From Sphagnum compactum (Eukaryota): DNA of 64,000 nucleotides. Shown here piece by piece: positions 20,707 through 54,709 of this stretch. Each line of letters starts with the position of its first letter. Position 1 is the first letter of the stretch. The stretch is taken from positions 4,898,001 to 4,962,000 of the forward strand of contig OZ234493.1 of assembly GCA_965153455.1 (NCBI GenBank). Reading direction: 5' to 3'. Under the pieces are notes generated by a model. That model ran no database searches. It worked only from the letters and a program-made list of their open reading frames with translations, and was not told the origin of the DNA. The position numbers and the translations under genes were made by a program.

Positions 20707-21451
20707 TGTTAGAAATACAATTCGTTTCTAATTCCCAATGTTGATGAATGTGTTAAACATCATCAAAAGGATGAATAGTATTCACATCCTTATAATAATT
20801 AGGTTAGGGTTTGGGAGTGAAGGCTACTTAGGGCTTGGTGACGGCTAGGGTTAGGGTTTGATGGCGGCTAGGGTTAGGGTTTGGTGGCGACTAGGGTTAG
20901 GCAACGGCTAGGTTAGGGTTAAGTGGCAGCTACTTTAGGGTTAGGAGATAGTATATATTAGAGTGGTTTTGAGGAGTCTTTCATTCTTTCCTTTCATGGT
21001 TTTTGAGTGCACATAGAACCTTCAAGCTTTGTTAATTGTTACAAGCCATAGTTTTGTGATTGTAGCATTTGAAGCATACAACCTTTGTAATCTTCTTGTT
21101 AGTTAATAAAATTGTTTCATTTCATGAACCTTGAGTGTTTATTTTCTTGCTTGTTTTCAAGTTGTTTTCAATAGGTTATGGGCTCACACGAAGCAAGAGA
21201 AAGGACATTGTGTTAGAACAAGAAGTAGTGAAGAGTTTTGAGCTTGTATTTCATTAAAAGAAAAAGGAGAGAATCTCTCTCGCTTTTTAGTTTGCACAAT
21301 GAATGGGAGTTCATTTCCAAGTGGTGGCATACAAGGAGCTTGCAACTTTTCCAAGTGAGTGGGAGGTGTGGAAGAAACTTCTTCAAAGTGTTGTAAGTTC
21401 TCAAGTGTGGAAGAGTGTTTTTCAAGTCTTTAAGTTTCAAAGTTTTAAGTT

Positions 21452-21630
21452 CAAAGTTTGTGGAAGAAAGTTCTTCGAGTTGTTGAGAGTTTCAACATTG
21501 AAATTTGAGAAAGTTTGTGGAAGAGAGTTCTTCGAGTTGTTGAGAGTTTCAACATTGAAATTTGAGAAAGTTTGTGAAGGAGAGAGTTCTTCGAGTTGTG
21601 GAGAGTTTCAACATTGAAGTTTGAGGTGTG
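21452..21630 (+). repeat. 57-bp tandem repeat (~3 copies) in the Copia A leader
   Basis: AAAGTTTGTGGAAGARAGTTCTTCGAGTTGTTGAGAGTTTCAACATTGAAATTTGAG repeated with period 57. Confidence 0.85.
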
Positions 21631-21781
21631 TGTAAGAGAGGTTTTTCAAGTTGTTGAAAGCTTTAAGTTTCAAGGGAGGCCTTCAAACATTAGGAACTTT
21701 TTCAACTTGAAATCTTCTCCCTTGCACTTCATTTCAATAGAAAAACATAGAGTGTTTATTTTAACATTTGTGTTCAACAAA

Positions 21782-22927
21782 ATGTCATCCTTCCAAATGG
21801 AGTCTTTGAAAGTCATGGAAAAGTTTGATGGTGACAACTTTCACCTTTGGAAGTTCAAGATGCGCATGATGCTTTCCAAGCATGGGCTTTGGAAGTTTGT
21901 TGATGGGAGTGCAACAATTCCCCATGATGAACATCAAATCACGGATTATAACGAAAATGCGACCAAGGCATTTGCATTACTTTGTGAACATCTCACGAAT
22001 GCACAACTTGCACATGTTCAATATTGCGAAAATGTCAAAAGCGCTTGGGAAACGCTTTGCGGTGTCCACGAAGCCAAGACTATTGGAAACAAATTGTTTC
22101 TTCGAAGGAGGTTCTTCACCATCAAAATGCAAGAAGGGGAAGACTTGCTTGCACACATCAACATGGTGAAGACGCTTGCGGACCAGTTACGTTCCATTGA
22201 GGTGAAGATTGAAAATGAGGACGTGTACATGGTACTTCTCATGAGCCTTCCCCCATCTTTTGATAACTAGGTCACGAGTTTGGAGTCCATGTCCACCAAG
22301 GATGTTGACCTTCAATTCATCGTCGCTCGATTGCTTCATGAGGTTTCCAAAAGAAAAGAAAATGAAAGTACGAAAAATGCCGCATTGCTTAACAAAACTC
22401 ATAAGGCAAATGAAAAGCTTTGCTTTTCTTGTAAAAAACCCAGACACTTTGTGAGGAATTGTTTGGAAAAAAAAAAGTGATGAGAAAGAAAAGGCAAACC
22501 AAGCTTGTGAAGATTAAGAACAAATGTTTGTTGCCGCCTTGGGTGCTAATGATCATACGACGTACGATTGGATCATCAATTCCGACGCAACACAACACAT
22601 GATATTCGAACGAGAGTGGTTCACCACTTACGAATCCATCGTTCCACGAAAGTTGTACATGGGAGAGGACACCATTTTGGAGGCCATTGGCAAAGGGAGC
22701 ATCAAGGCCACAATGCAAGTTGGAGGTAAAATGTTGTTTATAACCATCATTCAAGTTCTTCATGTTCCCAAAATGAAGAATAGTCTCATTTCAGTTAGCA
22801 AACTCATTTTGGAGGGCTTGAAAGTGGAGTTTGACAAGGATGGTTGTAAGGTGAACAATGTCCATAGAATCGTTGTGGCGGAAGCACGTAGAGAAAAGAA
22901 CTTGTATCTTCTCAACGTCAATGTTCG
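21782..22927 (+). pseudogene. Copia A gag-protease segment
   Basis: FDGDNFHLWKFKM, degenerate CCHC knuckle, WIINSDAT (mutated DSG); in-frame stops and a frameshift. Confidence 0.9.
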
Positions 22928-25900
22928 TGTTAGAAATACTATTCGTTTCTAATTCCCAATGTTGATGAATGTGTTAAACATTCATCAAAAGGATGAATAG
23001 TATACACATCCTTGTAGTTGTTAGGTTAGGGTATACTGAGGGTTTGGCGGCGGCTAGAGTTAGGGTTAGGCGGCGGCTAGGTTTAGGGTTTGGTGGCGGC
23101 TAAGGTTAGGCGGCGGCTAGGGTTAGGGTTTGGTGGCGGCTAGGTCAGGGTTAAGTGGCGGCTACTTCAGGGTTAGGAGATAGTATATAATGGAGTGGTT
23201 TTGAATTGTCTTTCATTCTTTCCTTTCATGGTTGTTGAGTGCACATAGAACCTTCAAGCTTTGTTAGTTGTTGCAAGCCATAGTTTTATGATTGTAGCAT
23301 TTGAAGCATACAACCTTTGTAATCTTCTTTTAGTTAATACAATTGTTCCATTTCATGAACCTTGAGTGTTGCATTTCTTACTTGTTTTCAAGTTGTTTCC
23401 AAAAGGTTATGGGCCCACACCAAGCGAGAGAAAGGACATTGTGTTAGAACAAGAAGTAGTGAAAGGTTTGAGCTTGTATTGCATAGGAAAAAGGAGAGAA
23501 TCCTTTTGAGACAAGGTTCTTAGTTTGCAAAGGGAGAGAGAGTTCATTTCCAAGTGGTGCCATACAAGGAGCTTGCAACTTTTCCAAGTGAATGGGAGGT
23601 GTGGAAGAGACTTCTTCAAAGTGTTGTAAGTTCTTAAGTGTGGAAGAGTGTTCTTCAAGTCTTTAAGTTTCAAGTTTGAAGTTCAAAAGTGTGAAAGAGA
23701 GTTCTTCAAGTTTTTGAGGTTTCCAACATTGAAGTTTGAGGTGTAAGAGAAGTTTTTCAAGTTTCTTGTAAAGGTTTTTAGGAAACTTGTTTCGTTTAAG
23801 TTTTCTGAAAATGTTTGCTTGTACAATATTGAAAGGGAGAATCCTTTTGAGGGAAGGCTTTTACTTTGCAAGGTTGCAAAGAGAATAGTCTTACAAGTGA
23901 GTGAGAGGTGCGGAAGAGATTTCTTCAAGGTGTTGTAAGGTTTTCAAGTGTGAAAAACTTGTTTTTGAAAGTATCAAGGTTTTCCAAGTGAAAGTGTTTG
24001 GAAGATAGTTCTTTTAGTTGTTGAAAACTTCAACTTTCAAGTTTGAGAGTGTTTGTTGTAGCATTTGTGTTCAAAACGTCTTCTTTTCAAATGGAGTCCT
24101 TGAAAGTCATGGAGAAGTGTGATGGTGGCAACTTTCACCTTTGGAAGTTCAAAATGCGCATGATGCTTTCCAAACATGGGCTTTGGAAATTTGTTGATGG
24201 GAGTGCCACCTTGCCAAGTGAAGAAGTTGCAAGGGCCGATTACAACGAAAAAGAGACCAAGGCTTTTGCATTGCTTTGCGAACATCTCACGGATGCCCAA
24301 CTTGCACACATTCAATATTGTGACAATGTGAGAAGTGCGTGGGAGGCTCTTTGTGGTGTGCATGAAGCTAAGACCATTGGCAACAAGTTGTTCCTTCGAA
24401 GGAGATTCTTCACCATCAAAATGCAAGAAGGAGATGACATGCTTGTGCACATCAACACGGTGAAAGCCCTTGCGGACCAACTACGTTCCATCGAGGTGAA
24501 CATTACGGATAAGATGTTTACATGGTACTCCTCATGAGCCTTCCTCCATCCTTTGATAACTTAGTCACAAGCTTGGAGTCCATGTCCACGAAAGATGTAG
24601 ACCTTCAATTCGTTGTAGCAAGGTTGCTTCACGAAGTGTCCAAAAGAAAAGAATGTGAGAATTCCGAGACTACCGCATTAGTGAACAAAACTCACAAGCC
24701 AAATGAGAAGCTTTGCTTTTATTGTAAGAAACCCGGACATTTTGTGAGAAATTGTTTGAAGAAGAAAAATGATGAAAAAGAAAAAGTTAATCAAGCTTGT
24801 GAAGATCACGAACAAATGTTTGTTGCGGCATTGAGTGCCAATGATCATACCACGTATGATTGGATTGTCGATTCGGGTGCAACGCAACACATGACATCCG
24901 AACAAGAATGGTTTACCACGTACGAGCGCATTTCCTTAAGGAGGGTGTTCATGGGCGATGACACCGTTTTGGAGGCCATTGGCAAGGGGAGCATCAAAGC
25001 CACATTGCAAGTGGGAGGCCAATTGACACACACAACCATCACCCAAGTTCTTCATGTTCCAAAAATGAAGAATAATCTCATTTCGGTGAGCAAACTCATT
25101 TCAGAAGGTTTCAAAGTGGAGTTTGACAAGGATGGTTGTAAGGTGTCGCAACCCCACTTTGTCCAAGTGTGGGGGTGAAGCCCAACACTTGGAAAAGTTG
25201 GAGGTTTGGAGTCCTCCGGGACTCCCGAATGTTCAAAGCTCGGCAGCAAGGGGCAGAACACCTCGCATTGAAGTGTTCTTAGTGTCATTGGAAAGGTTTT
25301 GAAAGGCGGATATCGAAAATGGCCTCGCATTGGCCATTTGGACATTTGCAGCCCATGTTATGGGCAAAAGAAGGGCCAGGAGTCAAACTGGCAGTTTGAC
25401 TCCCGACCACTAAAAGTCGGGAATCGACCCTTTGTCGACGTCGCCTTAGGGAGTGCGACATGGCATTGGAAAGATCTCGACAAGGGCTACAACTTTGGTT
25501 TAGACCTAGTTGCGATCGGATTTCAGAATCGAGAGTTATGACCGTTCAAAGTCCCGGGAGTCTCGCCGGGACAATTTCGGGACTCCATTTCGGGAGTCCC
25601 AATAAAATGTGCCATTTGGATGTAGCCTCCGTGGTGAGCCGCATAGATAACTATAAGGGGGAAGGTGGTGGCTTCCCCCAAGTCCGGGCCGTGGTGAGTC
25701 AAGTAGTCCGAAGTGCCCGTGGCTTGTCCCAACACCCAAGGGTGTTCCCGAATGTGAACTAACCCATTTGTGGTTGGTTTTTGGATGCAGATTTGTGCTT
25801 GATCTACTAGTCCATCTTCCTAGTCTAATCCCGGGGCTTCGAACTCGACCCTCTACCCCTTTCTAGAGTTGGAAGTCGGGAGCGTGCCCTTCGGTCCTCA

Positions 25901-26007
25901 CTTTTCGCAACTTCACATTGGTGAACCCTCAAGTGGGTTCACCCCGGGACCAAGGAGCGCGTCACGTGGTATCAGAGCTCAAGGTGAAGCTCAACGACGT
26001 TTTTGGG

Positions 26008-29000
26008 ATGGCACCCAAGAAGAACCGGAAGCTAGCCCCAGAGCCTAGGTCCGAGGAGCCCGTCGATGACCTAGTAGCTCCGCCCGAATCGATTGGGGAG
26101 GAACCAAACTTCCGGGAGGACCAAGATGAGCCCGAGGTTGAACCCGAGAGTGAGGAGGAACAACGGAGCTCGGTCCTATTCACCCCGGAGCAACTTGAAG
26201 TCCTCCTCAAGATGAATAGGCCCGACTTTGGTGAGTTGGTGGCGGCCCTCAAAACGGGGGCCTCCAAAGGTGAAAGGTTTCAACCGGCCAAGCCCGGGAA
26301 TTTCGATGGTGCCCGAGACCGTAAGGTGGTGGATGCTTGGCTTGCGGAAATGGATGATTATATCCACGCCACCAAGGTTGGACGGAATTCCGCCGTGGAG
26401 CTTGCCCAATCCTACTTGAAAGGCTATGCCGCCACATGGTGGCGGACGGTGAGACAAGAGGAGGGCAAGAACCACGGCTATATGTGGGAGTTTTTCAAGG
26501 ATCACATTGAGGCGGAGTTCATTTCGAGAAACTCCGATTACATTTCTAGGTGCAAACTCCGCGACCTTGTGAATGCCACGAATGAAAATTTGAGGCAATA
26601 TGTGAGGGCCTATTCCGAACTCATGTTGGAGATCCGGCACATGCACGAGTTGGATCGTGTGTGCCAATTCGTGATGGGACTTCCGACTTGGGCCAAGCGA
26701 AAGCTTGAGGAGAGTTGGCCCGCTTCATTATCCGAGGCCATCACGAAAGTGGACAACTTCTCGGATGTGGGGCGGAGCGACAAATTCGGGTTCAAGAAGG
26801 ACAACAAGTTCCTTCACAAAAAGCCAAGGCATGAGGGGGAATGGAACCGGGGGCAAGGTAGCCCAACCAAGGATAAGCCAAAACAATTCCAAGGCTCGGG
26901 GTTCAAGCCAAAAGGTAGCTTCGTGAAAAAAGGGGCTCCTTTCAAAGGGAGCCAAACCAAGGGAGACTTTGGAGCAAAGCCCAAGGGTGCATGTTTCAAT
27001 TGCAACGAGGTGGAGCATTACTCCAAAGATTGTCCCAAATCCAAAACGGGGGTTGGGAGCTCTAAGGTACTTGCTCTCAATGCCACTTTAGCCCAACCGG
27101 AATGCAATCGATTTATATTCTTGAAAGGGAAGATTGCTAAACGAGAAATCTTATGTCTTTTGGACATAGGGGCCTCCCACAACTTCATAACTCGGGAGAG
27201 CGCCGAAAGGATGGAGCTCCACTTGGAGGAGCTCAAGGCACCCATTGAGGTGCATTTCGCGGATGGGGTTCCCCATCCAACTACACTACAAGCAAAGAGA
27301 GTGCCTCTCCAATTGGGAAATTGGAGAGGAAAAGTGGACTTGTTGGTTTCCACCTTGGGTGGAATGGATTGCGTTCTCGGAATGGAGTTCATCACCCAAA
27401 ACAATGTGCTCATAGAAGGGCACAATAGGTTGGTTAGAATCCCATCTAAAAGTGGGATTGTGCGAGTTAAGGCACATGAGTTGCCTTGTGTGGGTGGTTC
27501 AACCATCCACTTCATGTTAGGAAAAGCTTGGGAAAGAGAATGCGTGGGGGGTTTCGGCATGATGTGTGTCATGCGGGTGTTGGACGAATATGAGCCCGAG
27601 GAAGCCACCAAGTTGGTGACTTCCGCCAAGTGCATAATGCAAGTCTTACAAGAGTTCCTGGATGTGATGCCCGAAGACTTGCCCGAAGACTTGCCCCCGA
27701 GAAGACGAGTTGATCATGCGATTGAAGTGATACCGGGAGTGGAACCGCCCGCCAAGGCCCCATATAGAATGAGCCACGAGGAGTTGAAGGAACTCAAGGT
27801 TCAACTTGAGGAACTCCTCGCGAAAGGTTACATCAAACCAAGCAAGTCACCATATGGGGCACCCGTCCTTTTTGTTCACAAGAAGGATGGGACTTTGAGG
27901 ATGTGTGTGGATTATAGAGCACTCAATAAGGCAACGGTGAAAAACCGTTATCCTTTACCTCGCATCGATGATCTATTTGACCGTCTCTCGGGAGCCAAGG
28001 TTTTTAGTAGAATTGATCTACGTTCGGGATATTACCAAATAAGGATCGCGGAAGGGGACGAAGAAAAGATCGCTTTCGCACAATGTATGGGTCATACGAG
28101 TTCTTGATGATGCCCTTTGGGCTCACCAATGCACCCGCAACATTTTGCACCCTCATGAATGACATTTTCCGCGAATGGCTTGATGATTTTGTGGTCGTCT
28201 ACATAGACGACATTTTGATTTATAGTAGCTCCATGGAGGAGCATGCGGAGCACCTTCGCAAGGTGTTCCAAAGGCTAAGGGAAAACAAGTTGTATGCCAA
28301 GCTGGAGAAGTGCGAATTTGAGGTGACGGAAGTGGATTTCCTTGGGCATAGGATAACTCAAGATGGTTTGATGATGGATGATCACAAGGTCAAGGCGATT
28401 TTGGATTGGGAGCCGCCTAACTTGGTTCCCGCCTTGAGATCCTTTTTAGGATTGGCCTCCTATTATCGCAAGTTCATAAAGAACTTTGCGAGAATAGCGG
28501 CCCCTTTGACAAACCTCTTGAAGAAGTCCGCCGTCACTTATGATTGGGATGAAGCATGCGACGAAGCCTTTGGAACGTTGAAGGGCATTTTGGTGAAGGC
28601 GCCGGTGTTGAAGTTGCCCGACTTTGACAAGGAGTTTGAAATCCATTCCGACGCCTCCGACTTTGCAATTGGGGGTGTCATAGTGCAAGATGGAAGACCG
28701 GTGGCCTTTGAAAGCAAGAAGCTGAGTGAGACGGAGCGAAGGTGGCCAACTCACGAGAAGGAAATGTGGGCGGTCATACATTGTCTCAAGACTTGGGGCC
28801 ATTACATAGGCTCCAAAGATGTGGTGATGTGGACCGACAATGTGACCTTGAAGTACTTCGCAACTCAACCCAAGTTGTCATCAAAACAACAAAGGTGGCA
28901 AGACACATTGGCCTTGTTCAATGTGGACATCCGGCACAAGCCGGGAAAGGAGAACATAGTCCCCGATGCTTTGAGCCGGAAACACCAACTTAGAGTGGTG

Positions 29001-30488
29001 TATGTGGGAGAGTCGGAACTTCAAAAGGAAGTTAGATTAGCAAACCGCCGGGATGCTTTTGCCAAGGAGGTAAGGCAAAGCATCCAAAATGGAGCCAAGT
29101 CCCACTTCCACTTGAAAAATGGATTGTTGTGGTACAAGCAAAACCGACTCTATGTGCCGGAGGGGAAAATTAGGGACACACTTTTGAAGGAATGTCACGA
29201 TGGACCGCTTGCGGGCCATGGCGGTGTAAAGCGCACCACAACATTCCTAAAGAAGTCCTACTATTGGCCCAACTTGAAGGATGATGCGGAGGAGTACGTG
29301 AAGACTTGTTTAACTTGTCAATAAAACCGGACCCTCAACAAGAAGCAAGCGGGTTTGTTGCAACCTTTGCCAATTCCCGAAGGGCCGTGGGAAAGTGTGT
29401 CAATGGACTTTATGGTAAGTTTGCCCCCTTCAAAGGGGTTCGATGCCATCATGGTTGTGGTGGATCGGTTTAGCAAAATGGCACACTTCATTCCCACAAA
29501 GGATGAAGCCACGGCTCAAGAGACGGGGAGGTTGTTCTTCTCCCACATTTTCAAGCATCATGGCCTTCCAAAGGACATAGTGTCGGATCGGGATCCAAAG
29601 TTCACGAGTAAGTTTTGGAGGGCTTTGTGGAAGCGAATGGGGTCGGAACTCAAAATGAGCACTTCATTCCGCCCTCAAACCGATGGACAAACCGAGAGGG
29701 TGAACTTGGTGATCCAACAATTCCTAAGGAGTTATGTGGCGGCGGATCAACAAGATTGGGTGGATCATTTGGAGTTAGCCGAGTTTTGTTACAATAACTC
29801 GGTACACTCCGCAACGGGATCCACCCCATTCCAAATGGTGACGGGCAAGTCACCAATTGTGCCCATGACTTGGGCCGCACAAGGACAACCTTCGATTGAT
29901 GCAAGTGAGGAAGTGCCAATGGTCACACAACTTGATGAAGAAAGAAAGCGCTTGTGGGAGTTGGCAAAAGCCAACTTGGAAAAGGCGCACAAAAGGTACA
30001 AGGATTTTGCGGACAAGTCCCGACGAGAGGTGAAGTTTCAAGAAGGAGACGAGGTGTGGTTGAACATAAAGAACTTCCGGTTGCCCGAAGGGTTAAGTCA
30101 TAAGTTTATGGGCCCATATGCGGGTCCATTCAAAGTGTTGGAAAAGAAACTTTCCGACACTTATAAGTTAGAATTACCGGAAAATCTTAGAGTTCATCCC
30201 ACATTTCATGTTTCCCTTTTGAAACCGGTCTCCCGCGACGCCTCAAGGCCTAATAGAGAGCATCACTCAAGGCCTCCACCGGACTTGGTTCATAATGAAC
30301 CCGAGTTTGAGGTAGAGGCCGTGCTCAAATCAAGGCAACTTAGAGGGCGAGAGCGGGAATACTTAGTTAAGTGGAAAGGCTACCATGCAATAGAGGCTTC
30401 TTGGGTGAATAAATCCGACATGGAACATGCCCAAGAAGCCATAGAAGAATTCCACACTAGACCGGCGAAGAAAAGACGTAGAGCGTGA
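26008..30488 (+). pseudogene. Gypsy gag-PR-RT-RNaseH-IN-chromodomain polyprotein, disrupted
   Basis: [14 protein letters not shown] knuckle, [10 protein letters not shown] protease, YIDD RT, DASD RNase H, integrase with GPY/F motif, chromodomain EFEVEAVL..YLVKWKGY..ASW. Frameshift at ~28080 and TAA at 29322-29324. Confidence 0.93.
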
Positions 30489-31712
30489 TGAGGACATCAC
30501 CTTTCTTTTAGAGGGGGAGAGTTTCATAAAATGTACCACATCAAGTTGCAAGTGAAATAAAAAGGGCTTTAAAACTTCCAAGAGATTGTATCATGAAAAA
30601 TTTGTTAAGGCAAATAGGGTTGTGGCATGGACAAATAGAACTCTCTTGCGTAGGCCCAAATCAAAATCGGACTCTTACTGTGGGGTTGAGGAAACTTGGC
30701 CTTAAAAGAGGAGGCAAGCAAGATGAGCTTGCGGGGACATGCACATGCCTTAAGTGCATCCCAAAGGGTTGGTTGGTAGTGTGGCCAACGCGGGAAGTCA
30801 TGACCCCGCTCGCATACTTTAAATGTAGTTTGGGACTTGGGTTTGGCAAACCTAAGTGTTGCTTTTCGTACCTTGATAAGCAAACCTTTTAGTTAAGGCT
30901 TGGTTGTTGTGACCAAGGCGCGAGATAGGAAAAGGAGTCATGTTAGTTAGCTTAGGTCAAGAGTAGACTTGACTTAAGTCCTCATGAAGGGAAGGATGGA
31001 AAAAGGTTCCTCCCAAATGAGGGCTTCGTCAATTAGACTAGTTTAGTCTTTTGACGAAGCAAAGAAAGAGGGTTCCCTACAAGACCTTCTTGGACTTGTC
31101 AAGAAAGTGTTGGAAACTTGGGGAGGCCTAAGTTAGCTTGAGACAAGGTCCGAGCCGCAAGAGTCGGCAAATGGCCAAGGATCCAAAAGAAAGCAATTGC
31201 AATTGTATGAAGGAAAATTCTAAGTGTCAATGAGGACATTGACCTCTTTCTTCTAGTGGGGGAGAGTGTCGCAACCCCACTTTGTCCAAGTGTGGGGGTG
31301 AAGCCCAACACTTGGAAAAGTTGGAGGTTTGGAGTCCTCCGGGACTCCCGAATGTTCAAAGCTCAACAACAAGAGGTAAAACACCTCGCATTGGAGTGTT
31401 CTTAGTTTCATTGAAAAGGTCTTAAAACGTAGATATCGAAAATGGCCTCGTATTGGCCATTTGGACATCTGCAGCCCAAGTTATGGGCAAAAGAAGGGCC
31501 GGGAGTCAAACTGGCAGTTTGACTCCCGACCACTAAAAGTCAGGAATCGACCCATTGTCGACGTCGCCTCAGGGAGTGCGACATGGCGTTGGAAAGACCT
31601 CGACGAGGGCTACAACTTTGGTTCAGACCTCGTTGCGATCAGACTTCGGAATCGGGAGTTATGATCGTTCAAAGTCCCGAGAGTCCCGCCGGGACAATTT
31701 CGGGACTCCATT

Positions 31713-42866: not shown

Positions 42867-45800
42867 TATTAGAAATACTATTCGTTTCTAATTCCCAATG
42901 TTGATGAATGTGTTAAACATTCATCAAAAGGATGAATAGTATACACATCCTTGTAGTTGTTAGGTTAGGGTTTAGAAATGGAGACTACTTAGGGTTTGGC
43001 GGCGGCTAGGGTTAGGGTTAGGCGGCGGCTAGGTTTAGGGTTTGGTGGCGGCTAGGGTTAGGCGGCGGCTAGGGTTAGGGTTTGGTGGCGGCTAGGTTAG
43101 GGTTAAGTGGCGGCTACTTTAGGGTTACGAGATATTATATAATGGAGTGGTTTTGAGTTGTCATTCATTCCTTCCTTTCATGGTTGTTGAGTGCACATAG
43201 AACCTTCAAGCTTTGTTAGTTGTTGCAAGCCATAGTTTTATGATTGTAGCATTTGAAGCATACAACCTTTGTAATCTTCTTCTAGTTAATACAATTGTTC
43301 CATTTCATGAACCTTGAGTGTTGCATTTCTTGCTTGTTTTCAAGTTGTTTCCAATAGGTTATGGGCCCACACCAAGCAAGAGAAAGGACATTGTGTTAGA
43401 ACAAGAAGTAGTGAAAGGTTTGAGCTTGTATTGCTTAGGAAAAAGGAGAGAATCCTTTTGAGACAAGGTTCTTTGTTTGCAAAGGGAGAGAGAGTTCATT
43501 TCCAACTGGTGCCATACAAGGAGCTTGCAACTTTTCCAAGTGAGTGGGAGGTGTGGAAGAGACTTCTTCAAAGTGTTGTAAGTTCTTAAGTGTGGAAGAG
43601 TGTTCTTCAAGTCTTTAAGTTTCAAGTTTGAAGTTCAAAAGTGTGAAAGAGAGTTCTTCAAGTTTTTGAGGTTTCCAACATTGAAGTTTGAGGTGTAAGA
43701 GAAGTTTTTCAAGTTTCTTGTAAGGTTTTTAGGAAACTTGTTTCGTTTAAGTTTTTTGAAAGTGTTTGCTTGTACAACATTGAAAGGGAGAACCCTTTTG
43801 AGGGAAGGCTTTTAGTTTGCAAGGTTGCAAAGAGAATAGTCTTACAAGTGAGTGAGAGGTGTGGAAGAGATTTCTTCAAGGTGTTGTAAGTTTTTCAAGT
43901 GTGAAAAACTTGCTTTTGAAAGTATCAAGGTTTTCCAAGTGAAAGTGTTTGGAAGATAGTTCTTTTAGTTGTTGAAAACTTCAACTTTCAAGTTTGAGAG
44001 TGTTTGTTGTAGCATTTGTGTTCAAAATGTCTTCTTTTCAAATGGAGTCCTTGAAAGTCATGGAGAAGTTTGATGGTGGCAACTTTCACCTTTGGAAGTT
44101 CAAAATGCGCATGATGCTTTCCAAACATGGGCTTTGGAAATTTGTTGATGGGAGTGCCACCTTGCCAAGTGAAGAAGTTGCAAGGGCCGATTACAACGAA
44201 AAAGAGACCAAGGCTTTTGCATTACTTTGCGAACATCTCACGGATGCCCAAGTTGCACACATTCAATATTGTGACAATGTGAGAAGTGCGTGGGAGGCTC
44301 TTTGTGGTGTGCATGAAGCTAAGACCATTGGCAACAAGTTGTTCCTTCGAAGGAGATTCTTCACCATCAAAATGCAAGAAGGAGATGACATGCTTGTGCA
44401 CATCAACACGGTGAAAGCCCTTGCGGACCAACTACGTTCCATCGAGGTGAACATTACGGATGAAGATGTTTACATGGTACTCCTCATGAGCCTTCACATG
44501 ACATTCGAACAAGAATGGTTTACCACGTACGAGCGCATTTCCCCAAGGAGGGTGTTCATGGGCGATGACACCGTTTTGGAGGCCATTGGCAAGGGGAGCA
44601 TCAAAGCCACATTGCAAGTGGGAGGCCAATTGACACACACAACCATCACCAAAGTTCTTCATGTTCCAAAAATGAAGAATAATCTCATTTCGGTGAGCAA
44701 ACTCATTTCGGAAGGTTTCAAAGTGGAGTTTGACAAGGATGGTTGTAAGGTCAACGACGCTCGAGGAGTTGTTGTGGCGCAAGCACGAAGGGACAAGAAC
44801 TTGTACCTTCTTAATGTGAAGGTGCGTAAGGACATGGCACACATTGCAAATTCTTTGGAGGAAAGTGCGATGCTTTGGCATGAAAGACTTGGCCATCTCA
44901 ACATGGCAAGCCTTAAGGAATTAGATGCCATGGTGGATGGCATGAATTTGAAAGAAGTGCCGGTGCATCACATTTGTGAAGGATGCGTCAAAGGCAAATA
45001 TCAAAGAACATCATTTCCCAAGGACGGAGCAACGAGGGCTTCACAACTTTTGGAGATTGTGCACACCGATGTGTGCGGGCCAATGAAGACTACATCGCAT
45101 GGTGGAGCGCGATACTTTCTCACTTTCATTGACGATTTTTCAAGGAAAACTCATGTCCATCTTTTGAAGGCCAAAGGAGAAGCGTTTGAAAAGTTCAAAC
45201 AATACAAGGCCTTGGTGGAGAACGAAATTGGTCACAAAATCAAAGTGCTGCGTTCCGACAACGGAGGAGAATTTGTGTCTAAGAAATTTGACGCATTTCT
45301 TGCGGAATGTGGAATTCAACGACAAACAAGTGCGCCCTATTCCCCACAACAAAACGGTGTTGCGGAACGTGCCAATAGAACAATCATGGAATGTGCAAGA
45401 AGCATGATTCTTGCACAAGGGTTGGAACTTCAATTTTGGGGCGAAGCGGTGAACACGGCGGTGTACATCAAAAATCGATGTCCAACCAAGGCTCTTGATT
45501 CCAAGACCCCTCAAGAAGCGTGGAGTGGTAGGAAACCCGATGTGTCCCATTTGAGAGTTTTTGGTTGTAAGGCCTTTGCACATGTCCCCGATGAGAAGAG
45601 GACCAAATTAGAGTCCAAGTCCATGCCTTGTGTGTTTTTAGGATATTACGAAGGCACCAAAGCGTATCGCTTGATGTGTGTGAAAACCAAGAGAATCATC
45701 AAAAGTAGAGATGTTGTGTTCATTGAAAGGTCAAAGGAAATAGGTGGTGTACCTCATCTTGAGAAAGAAGAAAATGTAGTTGTGCATGAAGAAGTTGAGC

Positions 45801-48094
45801 GAGAAGAACCATTGGCCTTTAGTCAAGATAGACCTTTGAGTGAAACAAGAATGGAAGGTGTGCAAAGTGAATCCACACCAAGTTCTTCATCGGAAGAGGA
45901 ATTTGTTGTTTCCAATGACAACCCATCTTGTGAACCTTCACAAGATATTGCGAGGGAAAGACCTCAAAGGCAACGAAGGGAATGGCCTCGGGATTGGTGG
46001 ATTGCTACCAAAGAGGTGGAGCGCGCCACCGTTGCATTTTTGGAGGAGCCCCAAAATATTGAAGAAGCACTGACATGTGAAAATTCCAAGGAGTGGGAGT
46101 GTGCGATGCGAGAAGAATATGATTCCCTCATGACAAACAACACATGGACTTTGGTACCACTTCCCGCCGGTAGGAAACCCGTTTCTTGCAAATGGGTGTT
46201 CAAAATCAAACAAGGCGCAAATGGGGAAGTGGAACGCTACAAGGCTAGATTAGTAGCAAGAGGTTTTACTCAAACCTACGGAGTGGATTACAACGAAACT
46301 TTTGCGCCGGTCGCAAAATTTGCATCTATTCGTTGTATTCTTGCATTGGCGGCCTTGGAAGACATGGAGATCCATCAAATGGACGTGAAAACCGCATTTC
46401 TCAATGGCGAGCTTGAAGAGGAGATTTACATGGAGCAACCTCAAGGGTTCGTGCACCAAGGAGGTGAACATCTCGTGTGTAAGCTTCACAAGTCCTTGTA
46501 TGGTTTGAAACAATCTCCGAGGGCATGGAATCAAAAGTTAGATGCGTTTCTCAAAAGCATTGAATTTATCAAGAGTGAGGCGGATCCTAGTGTGTACGTT
46601 GCACAAGTGGGAGATGTGAAGTTTTTCATTGTGGTCTATGTGGACGACCTCATTTTGGTGTGCAACGATCAAAAGAAACTTTTACAAATCAAAGAGGAAT
46701 TGAGTCAAAAGTTTGAAATGAAGGACCTCGGGGAGTTGCATTTCTTTTTGGGGATGGAGGTGGAAAGGAATCGTGATGAAAGACTCCTACGCATCAACCA
46801 AATCAAATACCTCAAGGAAATATTGAAGCGGTTTCGAATGGAAGAATGTAAGCCCATTGGAGTTCCATTGGATCCCAAGGTGAAATTACAAAGGAATGCG
46901 ACTGGAAATGATGAATCAAAGGGATTTCCATATCAACAAGCGGTTGGGTCTTTGATGTATGCCATGTTGTGCACACGACCCGACTTGGCATACCCAATAA
47001 GCGTGTTGAGTCAACACATGGCGAACCCTAACATGGAGCATTGGATGGCCGTCAAACGAATCTTTCGATATTTGCAAGGTACATTGCAAATGAAATTACA
47101 ATTTGGTGGAACACCATCCAAGGAAGTTCTTGGATATTGTGATGCGGATTGGGGTGGTGATCTTGAAGATAGGAGGTCCACCACAGGGTTTGTTTTCATG
47201 ATTGGAGGTGGAGCGATTTCTTGGAGTAGCAAACGACAACCCACAATAGCATTGTCCACCACGGAGGCGGAATACATGGCGAACACGCAAGCCACAAAAG
47301 AAGCCGTATGGATAACAAAATTGATGATGGATTTGGGATACATGGAGGAGAAGAAAATGATGGTGATTCGATGCGACAATCAAGGTGCGATATCATTGAC
47401 CAAGAATCCCACTCACCATGCACGAACAAAACACATTGATGTACAACATCATTTTGTTCGAGAACGAGTTGAAAATGGAGAAGTAGGATTTGAATATTGT
47501 CCAACGGAACACATGGTGGCGGATGTCCTTACTAAGGCATTATCTAAAGAACGACATCATAAGTTGATAAACATGTTCGGATTAGAAACTTCATAGAGTG
47601 GGAGTGTTAGAAATACTATTCGTTTCTAATTCCCAATGTTGATGAATGTGTTAAACATTCATCAAAAGGATGAATAGTATACACATCCTTGTAGTTGTTA
47701 GGTTAGGGTTTAGAAATGGAGACTACTTAGGGTTTGGCGGCGGCTAGGGTTAGGGTTAGGCGGCGGCTAGGTTTAGGGTTTGGTGGCGGCTAGGGTTAGG
47801 CGGCGGCTAGGGTTAGGGTTTGGTGGCGGCTAGGTTAGGGTTAAGTGGCGGCTACTTTAGGGTTAGGAGATATTATATAATGGAGTGGTTTTGAGTTGTC
47901 ATTCATTCCTTCCTTTCATGGTTGTTGAGTGCACATAGAACCTTCAAGCTTTGTTAGTTGTTGCAAGCCATAGTTTTATGATTGTAGCATTTGAAGCATA
48001 CAACCTTTGTAATCTTCTTCTAGTTAATACAATTGTTCCATTTCATGAACCTTGAGTGTTGCATTTCTTGCTTGTTTTCAAGTTGTTTCCAATA
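42867..48094 (+). mobile_element. Copia G, very young, inserted in the 3' LTR of F
   Basis: LTRs 42867-43356 and 47605-48094, with only about 2 visible differences; TSD CATAC at 42862-42866 and 48095-48099. Confidence 0.95.
44027..47596 (+). CDS. Copia G polyprotein with an in-frame 115-codon deletion (no zinc knuckle, no protease active site)
   Basis: Open frame; junction LLMSL|HMTFEQ at ~44495; 1200 aa against 1315 aa for F. Confidence 0.92.
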   Translation: MSSFQMESLKVMEKFDGGNFHLWKFKMRMMLSKHGLWKFVDGSATLPSEEVARADYNEKETKAFALLCEHLTDAQVAHIQYCDNVRSAWEALCGVHEAKTIGNKLFLRRRFFTIKMQEGDDMLVHINTVKALADQLRSIEVNITDEDVYMVLLMSLHMTFEQEWFTTYERISPRRVFMGDDTVLEAIGKGSIKATLQVGGQLTHTTITKVLHVPKMKNNLISVSKLISEGFKVEFDKDGCKVNDARGVVVAQARRDKNLYLLNVKVRKDMAHIANSLEESAMLWHERLGHLNMASLKELDAMVDGMNLKEVPVHHICEGCVKGKYQRTSFPKDGATRASQLLEIVHTDVCGPMKTTSHGGARYFLTFIDDFSRKTHVHLLKAKGEAFEKFKQYKALVENEIGHKIKVLRSDNGGEFVSKKFDAFLAECGIQRQTSAPYSPQQNGVAERANRTIMECARSMILAQGLELQFWGEAVNTAVYIKNRCPTKALDSKTPQEAWSGRKPDVSHLRVFGCKAFAHVPDEKRTKLESKSMPCVFLGYYEGTKAYRLMCVKTKRIIKSRDVVFIERSKEIGGVPHLEKEENVVVHEEVEREEPLAFSQDRPLSETRMEGVQSESTPSSSSEEEFVVSNDNPSCEPSQDIARERPQRQRREWPRDWWIATKEVERATVAFLEEPQNIEEALTCENSKEWECAMREEYDSLMTNNTWTLVPLPAGRKPVSCKWVFKIKQGANGEVERYKARLVARGFTQTYGVDYNETFAPVAKFASIRCILALAALEDMEIHQMDVKTAFLNGELEEEIYMEQPQGFVHQGGEHLVCKLHKSLYGLKQSPRAWNQKLDAFLKSIEFIKSEADPSVYVAQVGDVKFFIVVYVDDLILVCNDQKKLLQIKEELSQKFEMKDLGELHFFLGMEVERNRDERLLRINQIKYLKEILKRFRMEECKPIGVPLDPKVKLQRNATGNDESKGFPYQQAVGSLMYAMLCTRPDLAYPISVLSQHMANPNMEHWMAVKRIFRYLQGTLQMKLQFGGTPSKEVLGYCDADWGGDLEDRRSTTGFVFMIGGGAISWSSKRQPTIALSTTEAEYMANTQATKEAVWITKLMMDLGYMEEKKMMVIRCDNQGAISLTKNPTHHARTKHIDVQHHFVRERVENGEVGFEYCPTEHMVADVLTKALSKERHHKLINMFGLETS

Positions 48095-48558
48095 CATACA
48101 ACCTTTGTAATCTTCTTTTAGTTAATACAATTGTTCCATTTCATGAACCTTGAGTGTTGCATTTCTTGCTTGTTTTCAAGTTGTTTCCAATAGAATCTCC
48201 TTCGAAGGAACAACTTGTTGCCAATGGTCTTAGCTTCATGCACACCACAAAGAGCCTCCCACGCACTTCTCACATTGTCACAATATTGAATGTGTGCAAG
48301 TTGGGCATCCGTGAGATGTTCGCAAAGCAATGCAAAAGCCTTGGTCTCTTTTTCGTTGTAATCGGCCCTTGCAACTTCTTCACTTGGCAAGGTGGCACTC
48401 CCATCAACAAATTTCCAAAGCCCATGTTTGGAAAGCATCATGCGCATTTTGAACTTCCAAAGGTGAAAGTTGCCACCATCAAACTTCTCCATGACTTTCA
48501 AGGACTCCATTTGAAAAGAAGACATTTTGAACACAAATGCTACAACAAACACTCTCAA

Positions 48559-50185
48559 CCTTGCACGTTTCGCCACTCCGTTTTGTTGAGGCCTATACGG
48601 TGTGGAGGTTTGTTTCTCAATGCCGTGTGCCTTCAAGAAGCGCTTGAATTCCTTGGAAATGTACTCCCCTTCATTGTCCGACCGAAACACCTTGATCTTG
48701 TGCTCCGATTGTGTCTCCACAAGTGCCTTGAATTCCTTGAACTTTTCCAAGCACTCCCCTTTGGATTTCAACAAGTACACCCACACCTACCTTGAAAAGT
48801 CGTCAATGTACGTCACAAAGTACCTTGCACCACCCAAGGATGTGGTCCTCATGGGGGCACATACGTCCGAATGCACAATCTCCAAGGGCTTGGTGGCACG
48901 CATCCCTCCATTGCTTGGAAATGGTTTGCGATGTTAATTTCCCTCAATGCACCCTTCACAAACAAATGAAGATGTAGGGCAAGGCATGTTTCCAAGGTTC
49001 ATACCACTCACCATGTTTTGGAGCGCATGCACACCTTTGACGTTCAAATGACCGAGGCGGCGATGCCAAAACTCCAATGCACCATCAATTGTTGAAGTTT
49101 GGGCCACGTTGGCCACATGCACCTCACACACCTTGGTGAAGGTCACTTGTTACAAGTTGCCTTCGCGTAGCGCTATTGCAATCACCTCTCCATCAAATGC
49201 CCTCACAATGCACTCAGTCATGTTGAATTGCACTTTGCACCCACTTGACAAGATTTTGCTCACCGAAAGGAAGTTGGCATGCAATTTTGGCACATGGAGC
49301 ACGTCCTTGATTCTAATCTTCTTGGTTCGCCCTTTCACCATCACTTCCACAAGGATGGACCCCATTCCATTGCCTCAACAATGCTATCATCACCCATATG
49401 CACGTTGCGTGTTGGAATTACCTCATACATGTCAAATGCGGCTCTATGAGAGGTCATATGCTTGGTGGCTCCCGAGTCCATGATCCACTTGCATATGGCC
49501 TTGTAATGGTTTCCATCCTTTGTTGCAAAGGAATAGTCATCATCGTCCTTGGCTTTGTTGGCATTCTCCTTCTCCTTGTTGTTCTTGGCCTTGAAGCAAA
49601 ATCGTGCAATGTGGCCCGGTTTGCCACAATAGTGCGTCTTGGTGTCTTTGCGTGTAGATGTGGTCCCTCCTCTTCCTTGCGTTGACACCATCGCTGCATC
49701 GTCACCTTGTGGCTCCTTCTCCCTCCTCTTGGACACTTCATGCATCAATCGTGCGGTCACAAACTCCATGGTGAGGTTTTGCATGGGCAAGGTTTCCAAG
49801 GCGGTGTTTAGGTACTCGTAGGAGGGTGGCAAGCTCTCAAGCAAGGTCATCACAACATCCTCATCCCTCACGGGCACCTCCAAACAAGCAAGTTGATCCG
49901 CAAGCGCCTTGACCTTGTTAAGTGGTCTAGAAGGTCCTCTCCCTCTTGCATCTTGCACGTGAAGAACTTGCGGCGAATGAAGAGGATGTTGGACAAGCTC
50001 CGCTTTTCGTGGATGTTGCAAAATGTCTTCCATGCCTCGGATGGTGGAGCCTCCTCAGACCCGTCGACAATCTCTTAAAGGTCCATGAAGGCCAACACCA
50101 TCTCCATCTTGAACTTCCAAAGATTGAAGTTTACCCCATTGAACTTGTCAATGACTTTAGCGCTCTCTCCCTCAAACGATGCCGT
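48559..50185 (-). pseudogene. Copia E gag-PR-partial integrase
   Basis: KVIDKFNGVNFNLWKFKM, YCGKPGHIARFC, WIMDSGATKHM, WHRRLGHLN..CEGC, SDNEGE..PQQNGVAKRAR. Frameshifted, and ends abruptly at 48559. Confidence 0.88.
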
Positions 50186-51204
50186 TTTGCCATCAAATCC
50201 GACCTTTCTACCCACTTATGCGCTCAACCAAATGCTAATTAGTACTTAATGAGCACTCTTACATGCAATTGCCTCAATGCACTCTCAAATGTGCTTCAAT
50301 CATTCAAATGCACACGAATGCACCTCATAAACACACTCTAGCCCCTAAAAGGCTCAATTGTGTACAAATGCACCTCCAATCACAAAATTTAGCCCTTAAT
50401 GGCTCCCACTTGCATCAATGCCTCCTCAAACACTCAAAATGCACTCAACCAACTCAAATCAAGTGCTCTATGAATCAAATGTGCACAAATACACCTTAAT
50501 GACTCAAATTAGGACTTACAATGTTGGAATGTGCACACATGCACATCCAATGCTTCTAAATACCTCCAAAGAGCATCAATCAAGCACTTGTGCACCTCTA
50601 AACTCCAAATGGCCTCCAAAACCTCAAAGCTCCCCCAAAGCTCTTCAAAACTCCTCCAAGGCTCTAAAAGCGCCTCCAAAACCCTCAAAAGTGCAAACTT
50701 GCACATCCAACACACACAAACCCTAAAAAATCTCTCTCAATGCACACAAGCAATCAAACCTCTAATCATGCAACTCGCATGTGTGGGCCCATAACCTATT
50801 GGAAATTACAAAGGTTATATGCTTCAAATGTTACAATCATAAAACTATGACTTGTAATATCTAACAAGGCTTGAAGCTTCTATGTGCACTCAAAAACCAT
50901 AAAAGAGAGAATAAAAGACTTCTCAAAACCAAACCCTTATATACTATCTACTAACCCTAAAGTAGCCGCCACTTAACCCTAATCTAACCGCCGCCTAACC
51001 CTAGCCGCCACCAAACCCTAACCCTAGCCGTCACCAAGCCCTAATCCTAGCCGCCGCCAAACCCTAACCCTAGCTGTCACCAAGCCCTCTCAAATCTACC
51101 TATGTCTTTGATTGCTTACAACACTTATCTACCACATTGTTTCTACTATCTACCACACCATTATCTATGTTTATAACATCTACATCATAATCTTCAACAA
51201 AATG

Positions 51205-53450
51205 GAGTTGCGGAACGAGCCAATAGGACCATCATGGAATGCGCTAGGAGCATGATTTGACTTGACTTGGAGTTTTGGGCGGAGGCGGTGAACACGGCAG
51301 TTTACATCAAGAATCGATGCCCAACTAAAGCTCTTGAATCAAAGACTCCGCAAGAAGCATGCACCGGTAGAAAGCCCGATGTATCTCATTTGAAAGTTTT
51401 TGGTTGCAAGACATTTGCGCACATTCCTGATGAAAAGAGAAGTAAATTAGAGTCCAAATCTATACCTTGTGTGTTTTTAGGGTATTGTGAAAGGACCAAA
51501 GCATATCGCTTGATGTGTGTAGAAATCAAAAAGATCATCAAGAATCGTGATGTTGTGTTCCTTGAAGGGACGGAAGAAGCTGAAGGTGTTCATGAGAATA
51601 GACCCTCTTTAAACCCAGTAGAACACGTTGTTGTGGATGAAGTCGTGAATGATGATGAACTCATTAAGGATGCCAATCCTATATCTTTGAAGGAGAGACC
51701 AGCGAAAGACGTGGAAGGTGGTGAATCTACATCAAACTCTTATTCGGAAGAAGAATTTGCTCCTCCACAAGATGAGGGTTTGAATGAACCACAACAAGAT
51801 GGACAAAGAGAAAGGCCCCAAAGACAACGTAAAAAGTGGCCTTGTGATTGGTGGGTGGCCACCAAAGAGGTGGAACGGGCCACCATAGCTTTTTCAGAAG
51901 AACCTGAAACCATGGAGGAGGCGGTGAATGACAAAGATGCAAAGAAGTGGGAGATTGCCATGCAAGAAGAATACGATTCTCTTGTTGTCAAGAACATTTG
52001 GTCTTTGGTGCCACTCGCTAAGGGTAGGAAGCCCATTTCTTGCAAATGGGTGTTCAAAATCAAACACATGGGGTCGATGGTGAAGTGGAACGTTACAAGG
52101 CCAGACTTGTGGCAAGAGGTTTCACCCAAACATTGGAGTCGATTACAATCAAACTTTTGCACTCGTTGCAAAGTTTGCATCAATTCGTTGTATCCTTGCA
52201 TTAGCGGCCATTGAAGACATGGAGATTCATCAAATGGATGTCAAAACCGCATTTCTCAATGGTGACCTTGAAGAGGAGATTTACATGGAACAACCCAAAA
52301 ACTTCACACATGATGGAAAACATCTTGTGTGTAAGCTTCACAAATCATTGTACGGCTTGAAACAATCTCCAAGGGCTTGGAACCAAAAGCTAAATGCTTT
52401 TTGGAAAAAGCATCGAGTTTGTGAGGAGTGATGTGGACTTTAGCGTGTACGTTGCGCAAGTGGGAGATGTCAAATTCTTCATTGTCGTCTATGTCAATGA
52501 CCTCATTTTGGTGTGCAATAATAAGGACAAGCTTGTGCAAGTGAAAGAAGAACTTTCTTGAAAATTCGAAATGAAAGATCTTGGCGATTTACATTTATTC
52601 CTTAGCATGGAAGTGGAAAGGGATCGTGCACAACGTCTTCTTTACATCAACCAAATTGGGTATCTCAAGGAGATTCTCAAATGCTTTCGCGTGGAGGATT
52701 GCCAAGCCATCGGAGTGCCACTTGATCCCAAGACAAAGTTGAAGAAGAATGTGAGCAAGGATGATGAGATGGTGAAGGTTCCTTATCAACAAGCCGTGGG
52801 ATCCTTGATGTATGCCATGTTGTGTACTCGGCTGGATTTGGCATACCCAATAAGCGTGGTGAGTCAACACATGGCTAATCCAAGCCTAGAACATTGGATT
52901 GCGGTCAATCGCATTTTTCGATACTTGCAAGGCATTTTGCAATTCAAATTACGCTTCAGAGGATTACTACCCCAAGATTTTGGTCAGATATTGTGATGCG
53001 GATTGGGCCGGTGACCTTGAGGATAGGAGATCCACCACAGGGTTTGTATTCATGATAGGAGCTGGAGCCATTTCTTGGAGTAGCAAACGATAACGCACAA
53101 TTGTTTTGTCGACGACAGAGGCCGAATACATGGCAAGTACGCAAGCTACCAACGAAGCCATATGGATGACAAAGCTCATGAAGGAATTAGGGTATATGGA
53201 AGAGAAAAAGGCGATGGTGATTTGATGTGACAACCAAGGTGCAATATCATTAACGAAGAATCCCACGCAACATGCTCGAACAAAGCACATTGATGTGCAA
53301 AATCACTTTGTTTGAAAACGAGTTGAAATTGGCGAAGTTACGTTCAAATATTGTTCAACGGAGGACATGGTGGCGGATGTGTTTGCCAAGGCATTATCAA
53401 AAGAACGACATAACAAATTGATAACCATGTTTGGATTAGAAACTTCATAG
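51205..53450 (+). pseudogene. Copia A integrase-RT-RNase H segment
   Basis: Resumes GVAERANRTIME after the E TSD; RT and RNase H with many frameshifts and stops; PPT AGAGTGGGAG precedes the 3' LTR. Confidence 0.9.
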
Positions 53451-53812
53451 AGTGGGAGTGTTAGAAATATTATTCGTTTCTAATTCCCAATGTTGATGAA
53501 TGTGTTAAACATTCATCAAAAAGATGAATAGTATTCACATCCTTATAATAGTTAGGTTAGGGTTTGGAAGTGGAGGCTACTTAGGGCTTGGCGACAGCTA
53601 GGGTTAGGGTTTGATGGCGGCTAGGGTTAGGGTTTGGTGGCGGGTAGGTTAGAGTTAAGTGGTGGCTACTTTAGGGTTAGGAGATAGTATATATTAGAGT
53701 GGTTTTGAGGAGTCTTTCATTCTTTCCTTTCATGGTTTTTGAGTGCACATAGAACCTTCAAGCTTTGTTAGTTGTTAGAAGCCATAATTTTGTGATTGTA
53801 GCATTGGAAGCA

Positions 53813-54263
53813 TATTGAAAATAACTTGAAAACAAGCAAGAAATGTAACACTCAAGGTTCATGAAATGGAACAATTGTATTAACCAACAAGAACAATACA
53901 AAGGTTGTATGCTTTCAAATGATGCAATCACAAAACTATGGCTTGCACCAACTAACAAAGCATGAAGGTTCTATGTGCACTAAAAACCATGAAAGGAAAG
54001 AATGAAAGACAACTCAAAACCACACCATTATATACTATCTCCTAACCCTAAAGTAGCCGCCACTTAACCCTAACCTAGCCGCCGCCAAACCCTAACCCTA
54101 GCCGCCACCAGACCCTAACCCTAGCTGCCGCCAAACCCTAAGTAGTCTCCACTTCTAAACCCTAACCTAACTACTACAAGGATGTGAATACTATTCATCC
54201 TTTTGATGAATGTTTAACACATTCATCAATATTGGGAATTAGAAACGAATAGTATTTCTAACA
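53813..54263 (-). mobile_element. Solo Copia LTR H, antisense, inserted in the 3' LTR of A
   Basis: Reverse-complement LTR (TG...TA) with TSD AAGCA at 53808-53812 and 54264-54268. Confidence 0.93.
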
Positions 54264-54365
54264 AAGCATACATCCTTTGTAATCTTCTTATTAGTTAATA
54301 AAATTGTTCCATTTGATGAACCTTGAGTGTTTATTTTCTTGCTTGTTTTCAAGTTGTTTTCAATA

Positions 54366-54665: not shown

Positions 54666-54709
54666 CCTTAAATGCCATGCTTTGTTTTATCTGTTGTTGT
54701 CTACAAAAA

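Follow-up and report, generated by a model that had tools for sequence, protein, structure and literature searches.

A deep nest of copia retrotransposons on the margin of a Sphagnum compactum repeat cluster

Architecture of the nest

The DNA described here is a stretch of 64,000 bases from the moss Sphagnum compactum (contig OZ234493.1 of assembly GCA_965153455.1, positions 4,898,001 to 4,962,000 of the forward strand; hereafter the window, with positions counted from its first base). Bases 20707 to 64000 form the margin of a repeat cluster, where copia-type retrotransposons are piled up in a deep nest; here copies of one main family, represented below by element F, lie together with an older subfamily, a second copia family and Ty3/gypsy elements. 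Taken jointly, and with a probability that we put at roughly 0.7, the evidence is best explained if the pile is the edge of a Bryco-type copia cluster of Sphagnum that nests into itself through a chromatin bias and is of the same kind as the RLC5/Bryco clusters of other mosses.

Self-BLAST of the window reveals one repeated unit of ~5.5 kb from 20.7 kb onward, and copia-derived DNA accounts for 32,922 of the 64,000 bases (51%). As a reference we took element F with its nested element G removed by coordinates (5573 bases, with long terminal repeats [LTRs] of 490 bases) and mapped it back onto the window. Eight insertions, A to H, are closed by 5-bp target-site duplications (TSDs) exactly where the original prediction had placed them, seven of them perfect and that of B with one mismatch. 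Since the ends were set independently by the LTR termini, a chance origin of these duplications (1/1024 per exact pair) is negligible. With the insertions excised, the host elements continue in register with the reference. LTR divergence, expressed as Kimura two-parameter distance (K2P), drops with nesting depth along both copia chains, from A (0.046) through E (0.042) and F (0.014) to G (0.004) on one and from A to B (0.026) on the other. The nest is thus three to four layers deep, A>E>(X)>F>G, where X is a main-family fragment described below. All features are collected in Table 1.

This map bears out the predicted chains A>B>C>D, A>E>F>G and A>H, as well as the single LTR fragment in the first 20 kb (15901-16038) and the start of a second nest at 57107. 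The placement of six insertions inside copies of the main family needs qualifying. B, E, G and H do lie in copia copies, E being itself of another family; F lies in a main-family fragment within E; and J is flanked by copia DNA on both sides, I and K, yet carries no TSD, and its flanks are two different older copies. The outermost level, a hAT transposon enclosing A, is not supported. Two scans for an 8-bp TSD combined with a terminal repeat gave as best candidate 18536..56588 (TSD 7/8, terminal repeat 11/14), which is at chance level among ~10 million pairs; the end resembles those of Ac-type elements. Domains of hAT, BED or DUF4413 type had 0 matches in 10 flanking open reading frames (Pfam, E up to 0.1).

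Table 1. Features of the window, with target-site duplications and LTR divergence where given
Feature	Position	Strand	Description	TSD	LTR K2P
A	20707-54365	+	Oldest copia copy, 79-87% identical to F	CCAAT/CCAAT	0.046
A, own pieces	20707-22927, 36259-36787, 51205-53812, 54269-54365		From map against F
B	22928-36253	+	Full-length copia in A	GTTCG/GTTTG (1 mismatch)	0.026
B, own pieces	22928-25143, 32913-36253		Site in A at reference position ~2301-2305
C	25144-32912	+	Ty3/gypsy chromovirus in B	TAAGG/TAAGG	0.051
D	31713-32532	+	Solo LTR of C's gypsy family, within 3' LTR of C	CCATT/CCATT
E	36788-51199	-	Second copia family, in A	AAATG/AAATG	0.042 (over 269 bases)
F	37387-48192	+	Full-length copy of main family	GAATC/GAATC	0.014
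F primer-binding site	37877-37892	+	GGTTATGGGCCCACAC, complementary to anticodon arm of initiator tRNA-Met
F telomere-like tandem repeat in LTR	37509-37636	+	5.9 copies of 23-base unit TTAGGGTTTGGCGGCGGCTAGGG with TTAGGG/TTTAGGG
F polyprotein	38514-42461	+	Open frame of 1315 amino acids
G	42867-48094	+	Youngest copy, within 3' LTR of F	CATAC/CATAC	0.004
H	53813-54263	-	Inverted solo LTR of older subfamily, in 3' LTR of A	AAGCA/AAGCA
X, left part	37076-37386	-	Main-family fragment in E; reference 1488-1799, 99% identical
X, right part	48193-48563	-	Reference 1123-1494, 99.5% identical; adjoins integrase core of E
I	57107-58306	+	Internally deleted copia, LTR 1-452 followed directly by reference 1458-2231; in unique DNA
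J	58307-63839	+	Full-length copy with a frame of 1138 amino acids	None
K	63840-64000	+	Older A-like copy (91% to A), from reference 1924; runs off the window
Isolated copia LTR fragment	15901-16038	+	Last 138-140 bases of LTR, 93% identical to reference

Insertion bias toward existing copies

The tendency of this family to land in its own kind was gauged by a scan of public metagenome contigs, whatever their host species, for LTR starts, which yielded at least 120 loci. All counts from this sample refer to the matches listed, and they carry the caveat that assemblies break at repeats. There were 129 LTR starts, one with too short a flank, and the remaining 128 reduced to 102 unique upstream flanks; 22 of these were 3' LTRs, which are uninformative on the target, leaving 80 informative cases. 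In 24 of the 80 the element starts directly inside copia DNA (14 of main-family, 9 of A and 1 of E type), and a further 7 have copia within 200 bases. Copia makes up 19-35% of the upstream DNA in every distance bin to 8 kb, and 52 of the 80 flanks hold at least 100 bases of it. Set against the 0.5% of Sphagnum autosomes reported as copia (Healey et al. 2023, PMC9946827; published work is cited here and below from the parts of each text that were available), this amounts to an enrichment of the order of 40- to 70-fold.

Orientation within the host copies is mixed (9 same, 15 opposite, n=24), and no strong target motif is present, the logo of 88 flanks reaching at most 0.22 bit over 40 upstream positions with a weak signal at -8 and -9 only. 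The word GATG, present in four flanks of the window, was discarded as a target, as it occurs in only 9 of the 88 flanks overall. Given the lack of a strong DNA motif, the bias would be set by chromatin or by a tethering factor. The self-homing put forward in the original prediction therefore stands as a bias of insertion toward copia (24/80 against 0.5% of autosomes), with homing a candidate mechanism.

Integration in the nest occurred with 5-bp staggered cuts, in both orientations and at many positions of older copies, and material was later lost: LTR-LTR recombination left D and H as solo LTRs, recombination between elements probably gave J, and deletions shortened G, I and X. Copies of the main family, the older subfamily and the second copia family have inserted repeatedly into one another: B, E and H into A, F into a fragment inside E, G into F, and two more that are now probably fused as J. 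The chromodomain gypsy element C and then D joined the nest, and deletions and recombination later trimmed X, I, J, D and H. In the account that we propose, the integration machinery would be biased to the chromatin of existing copies and not to a DNA motif, clusters would grow by self-nesting, and this one would be a copia cluster of the RLC5/Bryco kind published as putative moss centromere.

The main family and its lineage

Judged by its predicted coding capacity, the main family is an intact, autonomous-looking Ty1/copia element. It measures ~5.6 kb, with LTRs of 490 bases running TGTTAG...CCAATA and a TSD of 5 bp. The open frame of F encodes, in order, gag, a zinc knuckle, a beta-barrel, pre-integrase, integrase, SH3-like and RVT_2 domains (Pfam), namely Retrotran_gag_2 (residues 38-204), Pol_BBD (274-357), gag_pre-integrs (384-451), rve (469-566), SH3_retrovirus (626-695) and RVT_2 (830-1074). 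Integrase thus lies upstream of reverse transcriptase, as in Ty1/copia, and the direct LTRs, the adjacent primer-binding site (PBS), the GAGTGGGAG ahead of the 3' LTR and the 5-bp TSDs are likewise of Ty1/copia kind. The LTR termini of the copia elements are TG...TA and not the usual TG...CA (e.g., 37387 and 37876 in F), and the 5' LTR of G begins TATTAG instead of TGTTAG. In the leader, between primer site and gag, a unit of 51-57 bases is tandemly repeated, 3.6 times in the old copy A and 2.3 times in the young copies (positions 21453-21657 and 38087-38208, with corresponding stretches of B, G and J).

Two copies carry internal deletions. G has an in-frame internal deletion of 345 bases (reference 1629-1974), which leaves a frame of 1200 amino acids, and I lacks reference 453-1457. 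The junction of the G deletion is present in 0 of the 33 relatives' copies that span the place among the matches listed, so that the deletions of G and I may be one-off events.

The closest full-length database relatives of the F polyprotein are metagenome proteins of at most 54% identity. Shorter relatives comprise at least 120 metagenome proteins, many of them 80-95% identical and none with an informative name, and a protein atlas returned nothing beyond generic copia clusters. Six RNA runs labelled moss or plant metagenome contain 0.36-0.40 of the sampled words of F.

The lineage is indicated by the primer-binding site. Immediately after the 5' LTR the main family has GGTTATGGGCCCAC, and GGTTATGGGC(C/T)CAC follows the 5' LTR directly in F, G, B, J, A and E. 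Compared with the tRNA sequences given in PMC8216282, the complement of the site equals 13 nucleotides in the anticodon arm of the initiator tRNA-Met and does not match the elongator. Among plant copia lineages, such half-tRNA-Met primer sites are described only for Osser, Bryco and part of Gymco-II (Neumann et al. 2019), and RLC5 of Physcomitrium has been assigned to the Bryco clade (10.1101/2023.05.19.541548). The host is a moss also by its genes, a protein of the window having a 92% Sphagnum match with the next best in other bryophytes. Primer site and moss host together point to Bryco; as the site is shared with Osser and part of Gymco-II, it narrows the choice and does not prove it. We therefore consider the assignment to Bryco likely on this evidence. 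Primer site and host speak indirectly for the Bryco-like character claimed originally, and the commonest TSD length reported for that lineage (4 bp against 5 bp here) does not fit.

Other members of the nest and traces of recombination

Element E, by the sequence of its genes, is a distinct copia family and not part of the main one. It has LTRs of 403 bp, the 3' one truncated, and the same PBS as the main family; gag, protease and integrase are encoded by frames of its minus strand within 48564-50054, and the gag-protease part shares 45% protein identity with that of F over the aligned part. In its LTRs (36788-37056 and 50797-51199), a segment corresponding to reference LTR 125-413 is ~85% identical to F (37387-37876). 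This likeness in LTR segment and PBS suggests an exchange of LTRs between the families or selection on the segment.

The insertion site of F is a 677-bp main-family fragment, X (reference 1123-1799, 99% identical), situated between the integrase core of E and the truncated 3' LTR of E and having neither LTRs nor a TSD. X may be a chimeric cDNA, or it may go back to an earlier insertion that deletions have since trimmed, in which case the nest would have one more level. Its junctions were found at none of the 120 metagenome loci listed.

The ends of J are flanked by different sequences, AGGTC and GATCA. On the left lies the deleted copy I, which ends at reference 2231, and on the right K, which starts at reference 1924. 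J is probably, from these flanks, a recombinant of two copies that had inserted in I and K. Contigs of two public runs carry older sequence continuously into 63840-63982, which fits K being a real older copy. In I (57502-57581), LTR position 452 is joined directly to reference 1458, with loss of the primer site and the start of gag; the internal part of I is 99.5% identical to B, and its LTR only 93% identical to that of B.

C and D are Ty3/gypsy and not copia, D being a solo LTR of the family of C. The domains of C are gag, protease, RVT_1, RT_RNaseH, Integrase_H2C2, rve, SH3_Tf2-1 and Chromo (Pfam), and the position of reverse transcriptase before integrase, with a chromodomain at the integrase C terminus, marks it as a chromovirus. 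Its PBS, TGGTATCAGAGC, is of the usual type matching the 3' end of tRNA-Met. The LTRs of C (25144-25965 against 31267-31712 plus 32538-32912) differ by 32 transitions and 8 transversions (K2P 0.051), and 33 of the 41 differing alignment columns fall in the first half. Chromodomain targeting is cited in PMC7466625, and the presence of a chromodomain element would fit a heterochromatic setting.

The centromere question and alternative explanations

Clusters of RLC5 have been published as putative centromeres in Physcomitrium (Vendrell-Mir 2020, PMC7466625), where peaks of CENH3 chromatin immunoprecipitation (ChIP) lie on the RLC5/Bryco regions (10.1101/2023.05.19.541548), and in Ceratodon too. 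In Sphagnum angustifolium and S. divinum a centromeric role has been proposed for them on the strength of one dense cluster per chromosome and low recombination, and some chromosomes carry extra satellite clusters (PMC9946827). A centromere reading of the present locus is therefore plausible by analogy with its genus.

Several observations weigh against the reading that we prefer. The commonest TSD of Bryco is 4 bp (Jedlicka et al. 2019, PMC6911290) and all TSDs here are 5 bp; membership in Bryco is indicated indirectly, by PBS type and host, and membership in RLC5 is putative. At a distance of 15 kb from the nest there is a long open glutamine-rich exon that has a homologue in Sphagnum, and satellite RLC5 clusters occur in that genus besides the main ones. 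A centromeric copia peak of this kind is absent from Funaria in the published account available, so that the link between copia and centromeres is not universal in mosses. In the metagenome sample, 49 of the 80 informative starts have no copia within 200 bases, which makes targeting at most partial, and 49 of 55 LTRs with a long alignment are less than 90% identical to the LTR of F; the sample thus consists of relatives, and young and old copies are inseparable in it. Finally, the LTRs of C (0.051) are more diverged than those of its host B (0.026), so LTR divergence is no clean clock here; either the LTR of C mutates faster or the copia LTRs have been homogenised.

A bias of insertion may be mimicked by passive accumulation, that is, by elements inserting at random and surviving in a low-cost, low-recombination region without targeting. 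The spread of insertions over the element in both orientations, the weak target consensus and the landing of an unrelated gypsy element agree with it, low recombination is reported at the RLC5 clusters of Sphagnum (PMC9946827), and nesting in gene-free regions is a classic pattern (PMC11899658). However, 30% of insertions (24/80) in a fraction making up 0.5% of the genome is hard to obtain by retention alone; published Sphagnum genomes consist of ~30% repeats and only 20-25% genes (PMC9946827); and even the youngest copy, G (LTR K2P 0.004), is nested. We regard accumulation without targeting as unlikely. Considerably more weight goes to the possibility, which we place somewhat below even odds, that the cluster, though real, is a satellite or lies in an arm and does not represent the centromere of its chromosome. 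Healey et al. (PMC9946827) report additional satellite RLC5 clusters in Sphagnum, an apparent gene exon lies within 15 kb, only ~43 kb of cluster is visible, and 49 of the 80 insertions of relatives lie outside copia. Against this, the window ends inside the second nest, so that the cluster may extend further, and published moss centromeres are themselves small copia clusters in otherwise gene-rich chromosomes. With satellite clusters known in the genus and the exon 15 kb away, the status of a centromere "core" that the nest had been given originally stays putative.

We consider it improbable that the structure derives in part from duplication, unequal recombination or assembly error and not from successive insertions. 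The places that might raise such suspicion are J, without a TSD and with flanks from two different copies; I, whose identity to the corresponding part of B is 99.5% and whose end is only 2 bases off the place that C occupies in B; and X, without LTRs or TSD. In addition, no contig among the matches listed bridges a nest junction by 31 bases in each direction, and none of them shows an empty-site joint for H. Eight elements with TSDs at LTR-defined ends, on the other hand, are not a product of misassembly. The unique spacer at 54578-56984 is covered by three contigs of run X6 with 0 differences and by three of run X3 with 1-4, one contig of run X3 extends 28 bases into the LTR at 57107, and the contigs of two runs continuous from older sequence into 63840-63982 fit a real older copy K. 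Summed contig depth over J is ~50-750 times that of the unique spacer (runs X3 and X6), a figure that is not a copy number and shows that the family is repeated. Successive insertion into a self-nesting copia cluster remains our preferred account.

Telomere-like LTR repeats and possible reuse of insertion sites

The LTRs of the main family, of the old copies A and H, and of E contain a telomere-like block (Table 1), which in the window occurs at the corresponding place of every LTR that is complete or retains its 5' part. Four telobox-type TAGGGTTT words occur per main-family LTR, and 46 of the 48 telobox-type 8-mers of the window fall in copia LTRs. For telomere-like repeats in moss copia LTRs, no mention was found in the literature as far as its text was available, the Funaria paper included.

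Certain insertion sites coincide to within 0-4 bases (reference 390-397, 2225-2231, 2301-2309 and ~1625-1629). G and H, which differ in host and orientation, are offset by 3 bases at homologous places of the LTR; the offset is 2 bases between the site of C and the left end of J, and 4 bases between B and one insertion from the metagenomes (L081); and two metagenome insertions (L056 and L074) share the same five bases in opposite orientation, at what is also the left breakpoint of the G deletion (44495). Four pairs within 4 bases among 31 sites compare with 0.82 expected, a number reached in 107 of 10,000 simulations. The test was framed after two of the pairs had been seen, and the pairs that involve metagenome sites (1 within and 1 between sets) are by our own estimate not significant alone; reuse of insertion sites is thus possible.

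A bold conjecture, to which we give very little credence, is that the telomere-like block serves as a homing beacon, with a host telomere-repeat-binding protein tethering the integration complex. If so, new copies would be directed into old ones or next to them, and every putative centromere would become an island of interstitial telomere repeats whose resident transposons determine its chromatin state. Nucleosomes in fixed positions around the LTR arrays would then account for the almost exact reuse of four insertion sites. Near insertions outside copia, among the matches listed, teloboxes are not enriched (0.19/kb in the nearest 200 bases against 0.04-0.22/kb further away).

Surroundings of the nest

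At the left end of the window, a plus-strand run of open frames (1-5753) is rich in glutamine and serine. The largest of them, at 2799-5252, is a long glutamine-rich open exon whose product shares 92% identity with a protein of Sphagnum magellanicum that bears a chromosome-7 locus tag and measures 1891 amino acids; paralogues exist in further Sphagnum species, and more remote homologues in liverworts and in Physcomitrium. Ten open reading frames of the first 13 kb match no Pfam family. The AT-rich spacer between this gene and the nest holds short tandem arrays at 7463-7988, 12916-13137 and 14652-14865 (periods 31/91, 42/84 and 55), and apart from these three arrays in the first 15 kb and the repeats within elements the window contains no satellites. 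The window also has no tRNA genes and no Rfam match, and ARAGORN found no tRNA genes over the 120 metagenome loci listed.

Comparison with known systems and significance

The nearest parallel is found in the RLC5 clusters of Sphagnum itself (Healey et al. 2023, PMC9946827), which are likewise dense local copia clusters in a copia-poor genome of the same genus. Those clusters were located by 20-base words of Ceratodon RLC5, without element anatomy, and the present family and locus are putative counterparts of them. RLC5 of Physcomitrium patens, too, is a clustering moss copia with recent activity, and the Bryco primer type fits; it occurs in full-length and truncated forms, of which G and I may be further cases. 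CENH3 ChIP, Hi-C and genome-wide peaks support it in Physcomitrium; in the available part of the preprint describing it (10.1101/2023.05.19.541548) nesting is not mentioned (the word "nested" occurs 0 times). The Bryco centromeres of Polytrichastrum sexangulare (10.64898/2026.09.17.752431) are transposon clusters of a moss in which nesting was studied by iterative excision, with a mean depth of 0.69 +/- 0.75 layers as against three to four here.

Across plants, Jedlicka et al. (PMC6911290) likewise describe nested elements younger than their hosts, a same-family preference in some species, and non-random sites. In their survey the same-family preference is seen only in dicots and the commonest Bryco TSD is 4 bp, whereas here the bias toward own copies is strong and the TSD 5 bp. 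The Ty3/gypsy elements CRM and ATHILA of seed plants (PMC10984392) similarly accumulate and nest in centromeres, the youngest in the core. They belong to a superfamily different from that of the main copia family. Targeting by CRM is ascribed to a C-terminal motif of the integrase.

Copia clusters as candidate moss centromeres are thus already published, this genus included, and the locus is a well-dissected example of them; with the phenomenon in print for Sphagnum, the window opens no new question. Moss chromosomes are without the satellite arrays of seed-plant centromeres, and the foremost candidates for centromere DNA in them are copia clusters of small size. For such a cluster the locus provides an anatomy at base level that goes beyond the published surveys, as far as their text was available: the order of insertions, the intact and damaged members and the scars of recombination, together with the depth of the nest, a second family, a chromovirus as co-resident, the half-tRNA primer site and the telomere-like LTR repeats. 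Moreover, the rough figure for the insertion bias makes targeting and retention distinguishable in a test with population data.

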